Source: Escherichia coli (GTDB lineage: Bacteria; Pseudomonadota; Gammaproteobacteria; Enterobacterales; Enterobacteriaceae). Taken from it: a stretch of DNA of 64,000 nt. Location of the stretch: NCBI GenBank assembly GCA_902500125.1, contig GCA_902500125.1_4132.1, one strand, 5' to 3'. Made by a program: the position numbers and the translations under genes. Of the stretch, positions 11,753-39,883 are shown piece by piece; within the stretch, counting starts at the first letter, position 1; the number at the start of each line of letters is the position of its first letter. The notes beneath the pieces were generated by a model. It saw only the letters and a program-made list of their open reading frames with translations, had not been told where the DNA came from and searched no databases.

Positions 11753-12457
11753 ATGAAAATAAAATTAGAATATCCATACAGTAATGATTGGGAGAATGGG
11801 TATATACAGATAAACCCTGAAGGTAGAAGAACTGTAATACTTTATAATTCTCCAACTGATAGAAGCAGTACTCAATATGCCAGATATCTATTAGCAGTAC
11901 AAGAAGGTAGATATTTAACTGAGTCTGAAGAAGCAGACCACATTGATAATGATTTCACAAATGATGATTTGTCAAATTTGCAAATACTTCATGTTGATGA
12001 ACATCGTTATAAAACACATAAGAATGGTGTGCAAGCACGATATGATTCATTTGTATGTGCTTGTTGTAATATGGAATTTACCCGTAGGCATACTAAAGTG
12101 AAATCATATACAAAATATTGTAGTGTTGAGTGTTCACAAAAAATGGTCAAGCCTCCTTCTAATACAAAGGGTGGTGAAACATCTGTTGATTATGAAAAGG
12201 TAAAAGAATATATTAACCAAGGTTTATTAGATACTGAAATTGCTAAAATAATGAATATTAGTTCAGGTTCAGTACTGAATTATAGAACCAAAAATAATAT
12301 ACCATCTAAGAAATTTGCAAACGTAAAACGTTTAGAAGATAACATAGAAGATATCAAACAACGTTTGAATAATGGTGAGAAAAAAGTTAGTATATATGAA
12401 AGTTATGGTGCTTCCAAAAATGTGTTTGCTAGATTTTTGAAAAGACATGGCTTATAA
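11753..12457 (+). CDS. HNH homing endonuclease-like protein
   Basis: track ORF; EADHIDNDFTNDDLSNLQILHVDEHRYKTH HNH-type motif plus Cys-rich KYCSVECS; immediately downstream of intron-containing tRNA. Confidence 0.65.
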   Translation: MKIKLEYPYSNDWENGYIQINPEGRRTVILYNSPTDRSSTQYARYLLAVQEGRYLTESEEADHIDNDFTNDDLSNLQILHVDEHRYKTHKNGVQARYDSFVCACCNMEFTRRHTKVKSYTKYCSVECSQKMVKPPSNTKGGETSVDYEKVKEYINQGLLDTEIAKIMNISSGSVLNYRTKNNIPSKKFANVKRLEDNIEDIKQRLNNGEKKVSIYESYGASKNVFARFLKRHGL

Positions 12458-12465
12458 ATAATTAT

Positions 12466-12538
12466 GACTCTGTAGCACAATAGGTGGTGCGATTAACTGT
12501 TAATTAATTGGTTGGGGATTCGAGTTCCTCCAGAGTCG
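12466..12538 (+). tRNA. tRNA-Asn (anticodon GTT)
   Basis: acceptor GACTCTG/CAGAGTC, D-stem GCAC/GTGC, anticodon stem ATTAA/TTAAT with loop CTGTTAA, T-loop TTCGAGT. Confidence 0.8.
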
Positions 12539-12560
12539 CAAAAAACAACGAGAGGTATAC

Positions 12561-12818
12561 ATGACATACTTTTTAGTACAGACTGATGCTGATGATGAAT
12601 TAATCAGCAAAACTGAAATTGATATTAATGATTACCGAACAGTACTGGATGCTATTCATTACTATGATGTTCGTCACAAAGGTAATCGTGAAGAAATTAA
12701 GAACTGGATTGAATTGGGTGAGTACAAGGTTGAATCTTTATCTATTTCAGGTGATGAATCTGAAGAAGATGGTTTTATTACTGAAACTATGTACTTGACT
12801 ATTGAAAACGATTTCTAG
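12561..12818 (+). CDS. hypothetical acidic protein
   Basis: track ORF; RBS GAGAGG upstream. Confidence 0.55.
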   Translation: MTYFLVQTDADDELISKTEIDINDYRTVLDAIHYYDVRHKGNREEIKNWIELGEYKVESLSISGDESEEDGFITETMYLTIENDF

Positions 12819-12826
12819 GAATTTAA

Positions 12827-13228
12827 ATGAAAAAGAATGACTTGATCAAAATGCTTCAAGAGATTGACGGCAATCCAGAGATTGTTATTTGGAATGGATA
12901 TGTCGATGATTATATGAACATCGAAAAAGGCTTGACTAAAATCACTCTAGTCAAAGAAACTGAACAGTTCCTTCTGGAAGCATTAGTGCACGAATGGTGC
13001 AAACGTAACAATACATTCGACATTCCAGAAGATCAACGAACTAAGATTGCAGAACAAGCTAAAAAACTTCATAAGAAACGTGAATACGATTTCCAGAACC
13101 CACATGTTACTGAAGACGAATTCAATCACTGGTACGGTAAAAAGAAATTGACAAAGTATGTCCTTTCACCTAAACTACGTGGTAAGACTTCACTTGGTGT
13201 ATTCAACGCCGCAGACTTAAACTACTAG
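12827..13228 (+). CDS. hypothetical protein (paralog of 13241..13456)
   Basis: track ORF; N-terminus similar to next ORF (DLIKxLQ..PE..I...DDY). Confidence 0.55.
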   Translation: MKKNDLIKMLQEIDGNPEIVIWNGYVDDYMNIEKGLTKITLVKETEQFLLEALVHEWCKRNNTFDIPEDQRTKIAEQAKKLHKKREYDFQNPHVTEDEFNHWYGKKKLTKYVLSPKLRGKTSLGVFNAADLNY

Positions 13229-13240
13229 CGGGTATTATAA

Positions 13241-13456
13241 ATGAAAGCCAAAGACCTAATTAAAATTTTACAGAATAATCCAGAAGCAGATATTCTTATT
13301 CATGCTTCGCCTTATGATGACTATGCGATTGGTAAATGCGAAACTGCTCATTCATATCAAGCAGGAGACACAGATGTTGAAGAGTCTGGTGAAGATTTTT
13401 CAGATTCATTTGATGAAGATGGAAAACTATTAGTTCCAGTAATCATTCTCTCTTAA
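13241..13456 (+). CDS. hypothetical protein (paralog of 12827..13228)
   Basis: track ORF; shared N-terminal motif with previous ORF. Confidence 0.5.
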   Translation: MKAKDLIKILQNNPEADILIHASPYDDYAIGKCETAHSYQAGDTDVEESGEDFSDSFDEDGKLLVPVIILS

Positions 13457-13475
13457 AATAAATGTAGACGGTCGT

Positions 13476-13610
13476 ATTCAGTACTGAATCACATGGGGAG
13501 GTTGTGATTCCCGATTCAGTAGCTTATAAAGCAATTCCGTATGTGCCTACACATTACAACTAGTGCACATTTAAAACCTAGACGTAGGATGTAAGTATTC
13601 AGTACTGAAT
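13476..13610. promoter_or_regulatory. two copies of perfect 14-bp palindrome ATTCAGTACTGAAT ~120 bp apart (candidate operator pair)
   Basis: palindromes at ~13476-13489 and ~13597-13610 in ORF-poor region; same CAGTACTG core sits in many promoter spacers. Confidence 0.4.
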
Positions 13611-38014: not shown

Positions 38015-38129
38015 TTTAACTTTGGGACAACCATTCTTATTATGATATAATGTTTTATGTCATTCGATATAAATGACAACGGAACTATAAATATTATAGT
38101 AAAATTTATCTCTTATAGGAGTTATAAAA

Positions 38130-38513
38130 ATGGTTGGTAAATGGAATAAGAAAGATCCATCACATGATGTTGATATTTCTGGTCTAGACAATGCACATAA
38201 GCACAAGTATCTAGATTCACTAGGTCTTCTAAAACCAGACCAAAGTCTTGCACATGATCGTCCATCCCGTGAAAAAGCATTTAGCCTAGAATCACTAGGC
38301 CATGAGCTTAATCGTGTGTTTGAGGATCACCCAATCTATGTACGTGATATTATCGAGAAACTTAAAGTAACTCCTAAAGAGCACTTTAAAGCAACTGTAC
38401 ACTCTGCATTCCGTGCATTACATGAATCTCTAAAGAAAACTCACAATCTTCGTAAAATTCATGATGAAATCGTGAATGCAATCGAAAGTGAAAAACATAA
38501 GTTCAAGAAGTAA
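38130..38513 (+). CDS. hypothetical protein (paralogous to N-terminal region of 39859..41118)
   Basis: track ORF; shared YLDSLGLL / IIEKLKVTPKE motifs with 39859 ORF. Confidence 0.55.
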   Translation: MVGKWNKKDPSHDVDISGLDNAHKHKYLDSLGLLKPDQSLAHDRPSREKAFSLESLGHELNRVFEDHPIYVRDIIEKLKVTPKEHFKATVHSAFRALHESLKKTHNLRKIHDEIVNAIESEKHKFKK

Positions 38514-38520
38514 TAAAAAT

Positions 38521-38553
38521 GGTTGACTAAGGTCAGCCCTTTGTTGTATCATA
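38521..38553 (+). terminator. terminator/promoter module (GGTTGACTAAGGTCAGCC variant)
   Basis: hairpin plus T-rich tail; -10-like TATCAT 18 bp after TTGACT. Confidence 0.5.
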
Positions 38554-38703
38554 ACTTCTCAATATAACTGAGGTATCATATATGCAAGGTTTGAAATTTG
38601 TAGTTGCTGCCCTAATCGCTGCTGTTGTAGTGGGTACAGTATGTTATTCAATTGACACCTATATCAATACACCTAGTGTTGAACAAACCAAATAAGGGAT
38701 ATC

Positions 38704-38967
38704 ATGGCTGAAACATTATCACTATATGCGTTAGTACTGTTATTTGTCGGATTTCTTCCCGCACTCATTACAGCCATTCGTGTTGTTAAACATGAAGCTG
38801 CATTGATTGTATGTAGTATTGGGTCGAACATTCTATTGTATTTCTTTTTGACAAATACTATTGTACTGTTTGCTTTCTTTATCATGATTCTGTGGGTACT
38901 TGTAATTCTCGGATTCTTCATTTGGTCATTGGTTGATCCTAAGAAAAAATCAGGAGAAGTGAAATGA
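38704..38967 (+). CDS. multi-pass small membrane protein
   Basis: track ORF. Confidence 0.5.
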   Translation: MAETLSLYALVLLFVGFLPALITAIRVVKHEAALIVCSIGSNILLYFFLTNTIVLFAFFIMILWVLVILGFFIWSLVDPKKKSGEVK

Positions 38968-39260
38968 AATTAATTATAGCAATGATAATGTGTTTGGCTT
39001 TCCCTGTACTGGCTACTCCTAATCTGGACTGCACACTGTTGCGTTCAGATGGTGACACACTTGAAATCAACACATATGAACTCTTTGGTCCAAGTGTAGT
39101 GGAGAATGAAACCACCTACAATTTCAAAGCTATTGACTTTGAAGGTAATGTTCCAGTACTAACTACAATGACTATTGACAAAACTACTTTACTCGGACGA
39201 ATCACCACACAACGCGGAGAAAGTAAAACATTCACAGCGAAAGCTGACTGTAACTACTAA
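38964..39260 (+). CDS. small secreted protein
   Basis: track ORF; signal-peptide-like N-terminus ..FPVLA-TPN. Confidence 0.5.
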   Translation: MKLIIAMIMCLAFPVLATPNLDCTLLRSDGDTLEINTYELFGPSVVENETTYNFKAIDFEGNVPVLTTMTIDKTTLLGRITTQRGESKTFTAKADCNY

Positions 39261-39282
39261 TGGTATAGTACAGTGAAAATAG

Positions 39283-39312
39283 GGTTGACTTCGGTCAACC
39301 TTTATATATAAT
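39283..39312 (+). terminator. terminator/promoter module (GGTTGACTTCGGTCAACC)
   Basis: hairpin with TTGACT in stem; TATAAT 16 bp downstream. Confidence 0.55.
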
Positions 39313-39883
39313 GGAAGAAATAAACATGGAACGTTGGAAATTAATTCCTGATTATGACTATTCAATTTCTGATCATGGAAGAGTAAGAAACGAACAAACT
39401 GGATATATAAGTTGTGGATTTAAAAATAAAGATGGGTATGTGAAGGTCGATTTGTATCGCAATTCTGTGAAAAATAGAAAGGCGATTCATCGACTAGTAG
39501 CTGAAGCATTTTTACCACCACCCACACAGAAACAGTTACAGTGGGCGAGTAGAACAAAGAAAAAAGTTGTTCACATAAACCATAAAGATTGTAATAGAAG
39601 TAACAATCACTATTTGAATTTGGAATGGAACACAGCATCTGAAAACGTACTATATTCTTATTCACATGGTAACGCAACAACTAATCGTGGTGCTGCTGTG
39701 TTGACATGGGAAATTGTAAGAGAAATAAGAAAAGATTATAATGATAATTATAATGATGTGATAGAATATGCACGAGAAAATTGTAATAAATACCGTGTAT
39801 GTAAAAAAAACAATACGTCGTATTTTATACAATCAAACATGGATAGAGGATTAAAAATATGCCACAAGATAATGGGGATATGA
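39311..39883 (+). CDS. HNH homing endonuclease-like protein
   Basis: track ORF; N-terminal W..IPDYDYSISDHGRVRN and AIHRLVAEAF motifs typical of phage HNH/NUMOD-type endonucleases (recall-based). Confidence 0.55.
   Translation: MEEINMERWKLIPDYDYSISDHGRVRNEQTGYISCGFKNKDGYVKVDLYRNSVKNRKAIHRLVAEAFLPPPTQKQLQWASRTKKKVVHINHKDCNRSNNHYLNLEWNTASENVLYSYSHGNATTNRGAAVLTWEIVREIRKDYNDNYNDVIEYARENCNKYRVCKKNNTSYFIQSNMDRGLKICHKIMGI

Follow-up and report, generated by a model that had tools for sequence, protein, structure and literature searches.

Free-standing HNH endonuclease genes in a Rak2-like Escherichia coli jumbo phage, with one beside a tRNA-Met gene split by a group I intron

Results

The stretch of DNA analyzed here (the window) comprises 64,000 nucleotides (nt) of an assembly deposited as Escherichia coli (GCA_902500125.1, contig GCA_902500125.1_4132.1) and contains four open reading frames (ORFs) related to HNH endonucleases, which we call HNH-A to HNH-D. 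Megablast identifies the window as part of a PBECO4/121Q-type E. coli jumbo phage (Asteriusvirus, Rak2-like), with 96-97% identity to CRJP21, G17, Sharanji and 121Q at positions 13-38 kilobases (kb) and ~86-87% identity to a second clade that includes TH47, WPEC5, fEgEco12 and EC.P1. CRJP21 is the closest background genome; few large gaps separate it from the window over 5-44 kb, and three of these contain an HNH gene. The transfer RNA (tRNA) cluster of the window spans 8097-14117 and holds two of the HNH genes, one of them next to a tRNA-Met(CAU) gene that is interrupted by a group I intron (Table 1).

Table 1. Features of the window at and around the four HNH genes (aa, amino acids)
Feature	Position	Strand	Size	Remarks
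tRNA-Gly	starts at 8097
tRNA-Ser(UGA)	starts at 9199
tRNA-Ser(GCU)	starts at 11185
tRNA-Met(CAU), 5' exon	11429-11466	+		Ends with the anticodon, ...GACUCAU; identical to the intronless tRNA-Met alleles of WPEC5 and CRJP21 across GGTTAGAGCAAACGACTCAT
Group I intron, ORF-less	11467-11696	+	230 nt	In the anticodon loop, directly 3' of CAU; ends in G; Rfam RF00028
tRNA-Met(CAU), 3' exon	11697-11733	+		CCA not encoded, reads ACAA
HNH-A	11753-12457	+	234 aa	phrog_14913 "HNH endonuclease", E = 5e-56; no Pfam HNH match
tRNA-Asn(GUU)	12466-12539	+		Right neighbor of HNH-A
tRNA-Thr(UGU), divergent allele	14046-14117	+		Linked to HNH-B
HNH-B	14182-14577	+	131 aa	phrog_1271, E = 4e-18; Pfam HNH 21.2 bits (cut-off 21.4)
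ORF beside HNH-C	27672-27899	+	75 aa	phrog_28392, function unknown; within the segment 27673-28692 that some relatives lack; always with HNH-C
HNH-C	27901-28695	+	264 aa	phrog_35175, E = 5.5e-149; Pfam HNH weak, E = 0.02
Terminator-like hairpin	39282-39301	+		GGGTTGAC-TTCG-GTCAACC; left edge of the HNH-D insertion; kept in genomes with and without HNH-D
HNH-D	39311-39883	+	190 aa	phrog_59, E = 2e-32; Pfam NUMOD4 30.5 bits (cut-off 23.4) and HNH_3 30.0 bits (cut-off 24.8)
Virion structural protein gene	39859-41118	+		phrog_20398, E = 9e-170; directly downstream of HNH-D

The four genes were assigned by PHROG profiles, since Pfam alone misses HNH-A and leaves HNH-B and HNH-C below threshold; the curated Pfam cut-offs are passed by HNH-D only. 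PHROG gave HNH matches for all four, and reliance on Pfam alone would have wrongly rejected HNH-A and HNH-C. HNH-A consists of an N-terminal HNH domain (ADH63-IDND..N75-LQIL..H84), a conserved Cys4 cluster and a C-terminal helix-turn-helix-like region, and residues D62, H63, N75, H84 and C102/C105/C123/C127 are invariant in five homologues. HNH-B is a small zinc-finger-type HNH protein with the pattern CxxC...EH...N...CxxCH (EH..N..CPNCH), and HNH-C carries the pattern CxxC...DH..N..CEDCN..H. HNH-D matches I-HmuI (PDB 1u3e) over residues 8-127 (E = 2.6e-5), its NH..NN..N motif aligning with the H-N-N motif of that enzyme; PDB sequence searches with the other three returned nothing significant. 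HNH-A, HNH-B and HNH-C are full-length with intact catalytic motifs. All four are free-standing, none lying within an intron or intein: the sole Rfam intron in the window ends 56 nt before HNH-A, and HNH-B, HNH-C and HNH-D are intergenic.

An initial annotation of this DNA had recognized HNH-type motifs in the same four ORFs and had noted that the one at 11753 adjoins an intron-containing tRNA gene, and both statements proved correct. It had also counted five HNH genes, four of them firmly, and had placed three among the tRNA genes; the four firm ones stand, and only HNH-A and HNH-B belong to the tRNA cluster. A fifth HNH gene was not found by a regular-expression motif scan, by searching 149 ORFs (48 aa or longer) with Pfam and PHROG profiles, or among six further plus-strand ORFs that had been dropped by overlap selection (~155 ORFs in total). 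The counts of HNH-family members among the PHROG families listed (25 of 149) are all accounted for by HNH-A to HNH-D, a tally in which a lone match to an unlisted family would not show. The Pfam matches of the 149 ORFs include no GIY-YIG, LAGLIDADG or Hint domain. A 90-aa ORF at 8883-9155 that contains the string "DEHKD" was considered and rejected as an HNH gene; it matches phrog_4308, a family of unknown function.

The tRNA-Met gene was called by ARAGORN, with introns allowed, at 11429-11734 with a 230-nt intron, and Rfam scores the intron at 99.1 bits (E = 2e-24). We set the intron boundaries by comparison with the intronless alleles of WPEC5 and CRJP21; once the exons are joined, the 20 nt before and the 7 nt after the insertion site match the intronless allele exactly. 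No plus-strand ORF of 35 aa or more lies within the intron, the only ORF being one of 38 aa on the minus strand. An alignment was made of five introns: that of the window, those of Turkey5 and Klebsiella phage Muenster, and two from Vibrio-phage terminase genes. In it, 33 of the 70 predicted intron pairs are retained via compensatory changes; the U.G pair of P1 at the 5' splice site does not vary, and the intron guide co-varies with the exon (UCAU/GUGA in the window versus CGAU/GUCG in the terminase introns). These compensatory pairs, the invariant U.G and the co-varying guide indicate that the predicted ribozyme fold is under selection and adapted to the tRNA-Met exon, and the intron looks functional. 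By sequence, its nearest relatives outside the Rak2-like phages are introns of protein-coding genes (Vibrio phage terL, cyanophage psbA and Twort-like Staphylococcus phages). The 3' end of the tRNA-Met (11726-11736) reads ...AUGGCUC-A-CAA, with no CCA and with a G2.U71 pair in the acceptor stem; the intronless alleles encode ACCA.

HNH-A fills the spacer between tRNA-Met and tRNA-Asn, leaving gaps of 19 and 8 nt, respectively. In CRJP21, which does not have HNH-A, the two tRNA genes are 4 nt apart, and positions 10411-12460 of the window, which hold HNH-A, have no counterpart there save for a tRNA-Ser match. Among E. coli phages, HNH-A was found only in TH47 (98% identity) and Turkey5 (91.5%), with 71% relatives in RaK2 and K64-1. 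The intron and HNH-A occur together in the window, TH47 and Turkey5, which are all the E. coli-phage genomes with either element. The intron is present without HNH-A in Klebsiella phages Muenster, KP13-7, RCIP0023, phiKp_21 and OU509535, and HNH-A is present without the intron in RaK2 and K64-1, where tRNA-Met is intronless and has a different anticodon stem. Three states thus segregate (both elements, intron only, endonuclease gene only), as a homing cycle would predict.

The segment with the intron and HNH-A is ~99% identical in the three E. coli phages, which are otherwise divergent. This tract of near-identity, with 0-3 differences per 50 nt, begins at ~11177 and ends at ~12280 (in the comparison with Turkey5) or ~12540 (with TH47); it runs from tRNA-Ser(GCU) through the intron into HNH-A over ~1.1-1.4 kb and is centered on the intron and HNH-A. 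Immediately outside it, there are 20-48 differences per 50 nt; beyond the tract the three phages are ~80-86% identical, and Turkey5 aligns elsewhere at ~80%. Set against such divergent flanks, the tract reads as the signature of a recent lateral transfer of the intron and the endonuclease gene as a unit with co-converted flanks.

The neighborhood of HNH-A recurs in other phages. Its relatives lie 19-26 nt after tRNA-Met(CAU) in RaK2, CBB and fHe-Yen9-04; the tRNA-Met-like sequence of fHe-Yen9-04 is unannotated, was not called by ARAGORN, and has a T-loop that looks degenerate. A single-protein search of IMG/VR with HNH-A gave no match, and an alignment search gave only these three phages and one new contig of 208 kb, in which the relative is located 110 nt upstream of tRNA-Met. 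Distant relatives abut tRNA-Arg in Kuravirus O18-011 and lie near tRNA-Leu in Aeromonas phage Aszh-1.

The intron core motif GGAAGGTGCAGAGACTAG retrieved 120 contigs from IMG/VR, and in 8 of them the intron sits in a tRNA anticodon loop (L035, L040, L070, L071, L075, L088, L089 and L092), calls that come from ARAGORN only and from contigs some of which may not be phage. The host genes are tRNA-Thr in three cases, tRNA-Lys, tRNA-Asn, tRNA-Leu, one called "SeC" and, in L070, tRNA-Met(CAU) with the intron after CAU, at the same site as in the window. No relative of HNH-A to HNH-D lies beside these eight tRNA introns, a single weak HNH-B match being found ~6 kb away in L035. In viral tRNA genes, group I introns may be under-annotated rather than truly rare.

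HNH-B is carried on a cassette (14042-14583) that includes its own tRNA-Thr allele and replaces a ~90-nt tRNA-Thr segment of genomes without HNH-B. The breakpoints, at 14041 and 14584, are identical in comparisons with CRJP21, 121Q and ECO103, and the tRNA-Thr allele of the cassette shares only about half of its positions with the resident allele. Among other Asteriusvirus-type genomes, HNH-B is found only in EC.P1, WPEC5, TH47 and vB_Ec-M-J. Relatives also lie beside tRNA-Thr elsewhere: one with 71% identity abuts it in the T5-like phage HdH2, and one with 62% identity follows it by 54 nt in GAP32. In TH47, the HNH-B-linked tRNA-Thr (7813-7885 of locus L006) has a degenerate T-loop, GUGCAAUUC versus the expected GUUCGAUUC, and this allele may no longer be functional.

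The segment 27673-28692, which comprises HNH-C and a 75-aa ORF, is absent with the same edges from ECO103, which is otherwise 96-97% identical to the window, and from the more distant Turkey5; in both, the site without HNH-C consists of ~60 nt with a TTGACA-17-TATACT promoter. HNH-C is present in ~38 records, that is, in most relatives, and is absent from ECO103, EC22.5-2 and Turkey5. Its alleles form two classes, of 98-99% and ~79% identity, and the window has the class of the other clade (TH47/WPEC5-type) in a 121Q-type background. Because it carries the allele class typical of the other clade, HNH-C of the window lies in a recombinant patch.

HNH-C had initially been described as following a candidate large non-coding RNA. 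There is indeed a conserved non-coding region upstream, at 26860-27440 (about 550-600 nt), between a sigma-factor gene (25849-26814) and the ORF at 27466; HNH-C does not follow it directly, however, since two small ORFs (27466-27675 and 27672-27899) lie between. The region is preceded by a terminator and a TATAAT-like promoter and has no plus-strand ORF of at least 60 aa. A ~70-nt core, CGAACAGCAAAAGAAACCCGUUAGAUGU.GGCAUAGUUUG.ACC.CUCACGGCAAUGCGGCUGUAUAAAG, is almost invariant in Asteriusvirus and Mimasvirus-type phages (CBB, XbC2 and Kaldavass), and the variable hairpins show compensatory changes in 15 of 59 RNAalifold pairs. Rfam assigned no family to the region, giving only sub-threshold matches to terminator-like small RNAs. 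The region, which is the candidate meant in the initial annotation, probably encodes a large structured RNA of Rak2-like jumbo phages that has not been described before.

HNH-D was found elsewhere only in EC.P1, out of 1,323 records with any match. The inserted segment (~39304-39858, ~555 nt) lies, with exact junctions, between the terminator-like hairpin and the ATGCCA start of the virion protein gene, in place of ~60 nt that hold promoter and ribosome-binding-site sequences. Over its first ~90 nt, the virion protein gene diverges unusually strongly from alleles without HNH-D. We rejected the possibility that HNH-D splits the virion protein gene, because a conserved internal ATG, with a ribosome-binding site of its own, follows the insertion. 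The virion protein of the window is shorter than its counterparts (419 versus 495 aa), with a DNA identity of only 77-84%, and after this gene (41069-41105 in the window versus 32808-33903 of locus L005) ~1.1 kb with three small genes of CRJP21, 121Q and ECO103 is missing.

Taken together, genomes that share 90-99% identity elsewhere differ in the presence of each HNH gene, as sharply bounded insertion/deletion polymorphisms. HNH-A, HNH-B and HNH-D are rare, occurring in 3, 5 and 2 genomes, respectively (the window included), of ~45 close relatives. Presence or absence of free-standing HNH genes among close relatives is ordinary for phages.

Discussion

We find that the four ORFs are probably free-standing HNH homing endonuclease genes, selfish cassettes that spread between co-infecting Rak2-like jumbo phages. 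That homing-endonuclease mobility has shaped this region, as had been proposed initially, is supported by the polymorphism of the genes in relatives, by the near-identity tract around the intron and HNH-A, and by the recombinant patch of HNH-C, and comparison of the insertion sites with endonuclease-free relatives gave boundaries that are sharp and shared. From the domains, positions, polymorphism, intron structure and shared tract we infer a scheme that assigns to the genes a nuclease activity, target sites and a direction of transfer, and to the intron a protective role. In this scheme, the enzyme would nick or cut the cassette-less allele of a neighboring conserved sequence, and recombinational repair from the cassette-bearing genome would copy the endonuclease gene together with flanking DNA into the cut genome. 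The target would be the anticodon arm of tRNA-Met for HNH-A and tRNA-Thr for HNH-B. The carrier of HNH-B would be protected by its divergent linked tRNA-Thr allele, and the carrier of HNH-A by the group I intron that splits the anticodon-arm sequence. The intron and HNH-A would then move together by co-conversion, that is, by collaborative homing, and splicing would still give a functional tRNA. HNH-C and HNH-D would be intergenic cassettes that took the place of short spacers bearing a promoter or a ribosome-binding site, HNH-C being old and widespread and HNH-D a recent, rare arrival that may already be decaying.

The homing site of a free-standing endonuclease is usually located in the neighboring gene. 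Close relatives of HNH-A and of HNH-B each recur beside one tRNA species of their own in unrelated phage genomes, and the neighboring tRNA genes therefore likely hold the homing sites of these two enzymes. The arrangement of the intron and HNH-A fits collaborative homing or, alternatively, an intron-based immunity to the endonuclease. A more specific proposal is that HNH-A and the ORF-less intron form a working collaborative-homing pair in which HNH-A cuts the intronless anticodon-arm DNA of tRNA-Met, and in which the intron, having arisen from introns of phage protein genes and changed its target to the position after CAU, immunizes the carrier and is dragged along. We regard this as a tentative idea that has somewhat less than an even chance of being right. 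If it is correct, this would be the first self-splicing intron to be described from the tRNA gene of a cultured phage, and the pair would show a natural intermediate stage in the acquisition of endonuclease genes by introns.

Several observations weigh against homing by these cassettes. HNH-A and HNH-C lack Pfam support at curated thresholds. HNH-C is near-fixed and has two diverged alleles, which suits domestication as well as mobility. One alternative is that some or all of the HNH genes are domesticated or accessory nucleases that act in competitor exclusion, in degradation of host DNA or, like SegB of phage T6, in tRNA or anti-defense amplification against tRNA-targeting immunity. For HNH-C, the ~38 records, the distance between its allele classes and the constant 75-aa partner suggest a long residence. 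An adaptive role, in escape from Septu, is reported for the tRNA-cluster homing endonuclease SegB (PMC13096335), and HNH-A and HNH-B also sit in a tRNA cluster; no tRNA repeat amplification is seen beside either of them in the window, however. The rarity of HNH-A, HNH-B and HNH-D gives them a patchy, laterally transferred look unlike that of a conserved useful gene, and HNH-D carries a frameshift, described below. We consider such a domestication unlikely to be the explanation, with the reservation that homing and a benefit to the phage are not mutually exclusive.

Other unfavorable observations concern the region and the pairing with the intron. The 8-16 kb region is mosaic throughout when compared with relatives, also at sites without any nuclease gene, and ordinary recombination could yield some of the presence/absence patterns. 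None of the Klebsiella phages has both the intron and HNH-A (five have the intron only and two HNH-A only); the pairing is not obligatory and could be a coincidence of linkage. When we attempted to deduce the target from differences in the anticodon arm, the arm variants did not cleanly track carriage of HNH-A; ECO103, which is without HNH-A, has the CCGACUCAUAAUCGG anticodon arm, the same as the HNH-A carrier RaK2. Finally, HNH-D of the window has a run of eight A residues (39803-39810) where EC.P1 has seven, which shifts the frame. The EC.P1 frame ends ...KKTIRRILYNQTWIED, a typical DNA-binding tail. In the window, the last 27 residues are unrelated to it, and the frame overlaps the next gene by 25 nt; the shift removes the ...TIRRILYNQTWIED tail that is conserved at the C terminus, and the window protein has no intact C-terminal helix-turn-helix tail. 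This frameshift could be genuine early decay, a homopolymer sequencing error or a site of transcriptional slippage.

The mosaic region, the separate occurrence of the intron and HNH-A in Klebsiella phages and the frameshift in HNH-D would also suit a view in which the HNH genes, as passive cargo or dead relics, owe their presence/absence patterns to ordinary homologous or illegitimate recombination between co-infecting phages, and in which the intron is an unrelated hitch-hiker that arrived by reverse splicing or with an endonuclease since lost. The ORF-less tRNA introns in IMG/VR contigs, including L070 at the same site, that have no adjacent relatives of the four genes point in that direction as well. 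Against this view, HNH-A, HNH-B and HNH-C are full-length with intact catalytic motifs, and the near-identity tract is centered on the intron and HNH-A as one unit. Chance recombination does not explain why two HNH families are each found beside the same tRNA species in unrelated phage genera, and in several independent genomes the breakpoints coincide exactly with the ends of the cassettes. We therefore hold the cargo explanation to be rather improbable and prefer the interpretation of the four genes as homing cassettes.

HNH genes by themselves are routine, free-standing homing endonucleases being common in large virulent phages and known to cluster with tRNA genes. F-TflI, F-TflII and F-TflIV of phage T5 are free-standing HNH nicking endonucleases that are encoded between the tRNA genes of a virulent coliphage. 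HNH-A and HNH-B are HNH genes in a similar setting, and outside the jumbo phages HNH-B has its closest relatives (71% identity) in T5-like phages, beside tRNA-Thr; the likeness to the T5 enzymes is one of family and location. The record of phage Muenster also annotates the neighbor of its tRNA-Gly as similar to T5 TflIV. Free-standing HNH genes have already been noted in Rak2-like phages, with one "at the end of" a tRNA gene in CBB (PMC5259590). HNH-A and HNH-B further resemble SegB of T4 and T6, also a free-standing endonuclease gene among phage tRNA genes. SegB is thought to cut the tRNA region of SegB-less relatives and thereby to cause the preferential inheritance of that region, and a survey of 386 SegB homologues found endonuclease genes to be statistically associated with tRNA genes (PMC13096335). 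In contrast to SegB, which is a GIY-YIG enzyme, HNH-A and HNH-B are HNH proteins, the window contains no GIY-YIG gene, and there is no tRNA amplification; the resemblance is functional only. More generally, nucleases are reported at recombination boundaries (PMC10448857).

Greater novelty lies in the pairing of HNH-A with the tRNA-Met intron. Bacterial tRNA group I introns are found in tRNA-Ile(CAU) of Azoarcus and in tRNA-fMet(CAU) of cyanobacteria, the latter with I-SspI. The intron of the window is like these in its place in the anticodon loop directly after CAU and in a P1 of ...CAU with a GUG-type guide. It differs in being phage-borne and ORF-less and in having a sequence closest to phage protein-gene introns. 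According to a review from 2014, every phage intron observed up to then interrupted a protein-coding gene, although phages encode many tRNA genes (PMC3984707). Our literature search found no report of a group I intron in a phage tRNA gene, nor of an HNH gene beside such a split tRNA gene.

Collaborative homing has been defined for phage psbA and DNA-polymerase introns with free-standing endonucleases (PMC3984707). Examples are F-CphI with the psbA intron of cyanophage S-PM2, a DNA-polymerase intron of a T7-like phage, and mobE with the nrdB intron of T4 (PMC3984707, PMC2790892, PMC6083498). As in these systems, an intron and an endonuclease gene appear to have been inherited together between divergent phages. 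Unlike in these systems, the host gene of the intron encodes a tRNA and not a protein, HNH-A is not of the Endo VII type of F-CphI, the two parts separate in Klebsiella relatives, and cleavage at the insertion site is a prediction. Intron-only and endonuclease-only relatives exist as cultured phages, which makes the questions of collaborative homing and of the intron as immunity tractable. Likewise, the tie of two HNH families to one tRNA species each across unrelated phage genera makes the tRNA genes directly testable candidates for homing targets.

I-HmuI is the intron-encoded HNH nicking endonuclease of Bacillus phage SPO1. HNH-D shares its N-terminal NUMOD4 and HNH_3 architecture and differs from it in being free-standing and in having a C-terminal DNA-binding tail that is frameshifted in the window. 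Most large differences between the window and its nearest relatives coincide with HNH cassettes, which can serve as markers for recombination history and for annotation.

Additional observations

Other HNH genes are present elsewhere in the tRNA clusters of relatives. WPEC5 has one after tRNA-Asn (6670-7212 of locus L001), and Muenster has a Felix O1-like HNH gene after tRNA-Asn and a T5 F-TflIV-like HNH gene before tRNA-Gly (1-511 and 3015-3560 of locus L003). The tRNA cluster is thus a general hotspot for homing endonuclease genes.

Directly after tRNA-Ser(UGA), a borderline tRNA-like sequence lies at 9293-9371 (Rfam 29.3 bits versus a threshold of 29) that was not called by ARAGORN. The same site is occupied by tRNA-Arg(UCU) in CRJP21 and ECO103 and by an annotated tRNA-Leu(UAA) in 121Q, and the copy in the window may be degenerate. 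Interspersed with the tRNA genes (7635-9886) are at least six paralogous small ORFs of 54-66 aa with an MTHEEWM motif at or near the N terminus (phrog_10970), starting at 7635, 7875, 8394, 9400, 9561 and 9722. Another family, phrog_11711, is matched by ten ORFs of the window. On the minus strand, 50562-59816 encodes a run of seven to eight large paralogous proteins with RCC1-like repeats (Pfam WD40_RLD, RCC1 and RCC1_2; phrog_4219).

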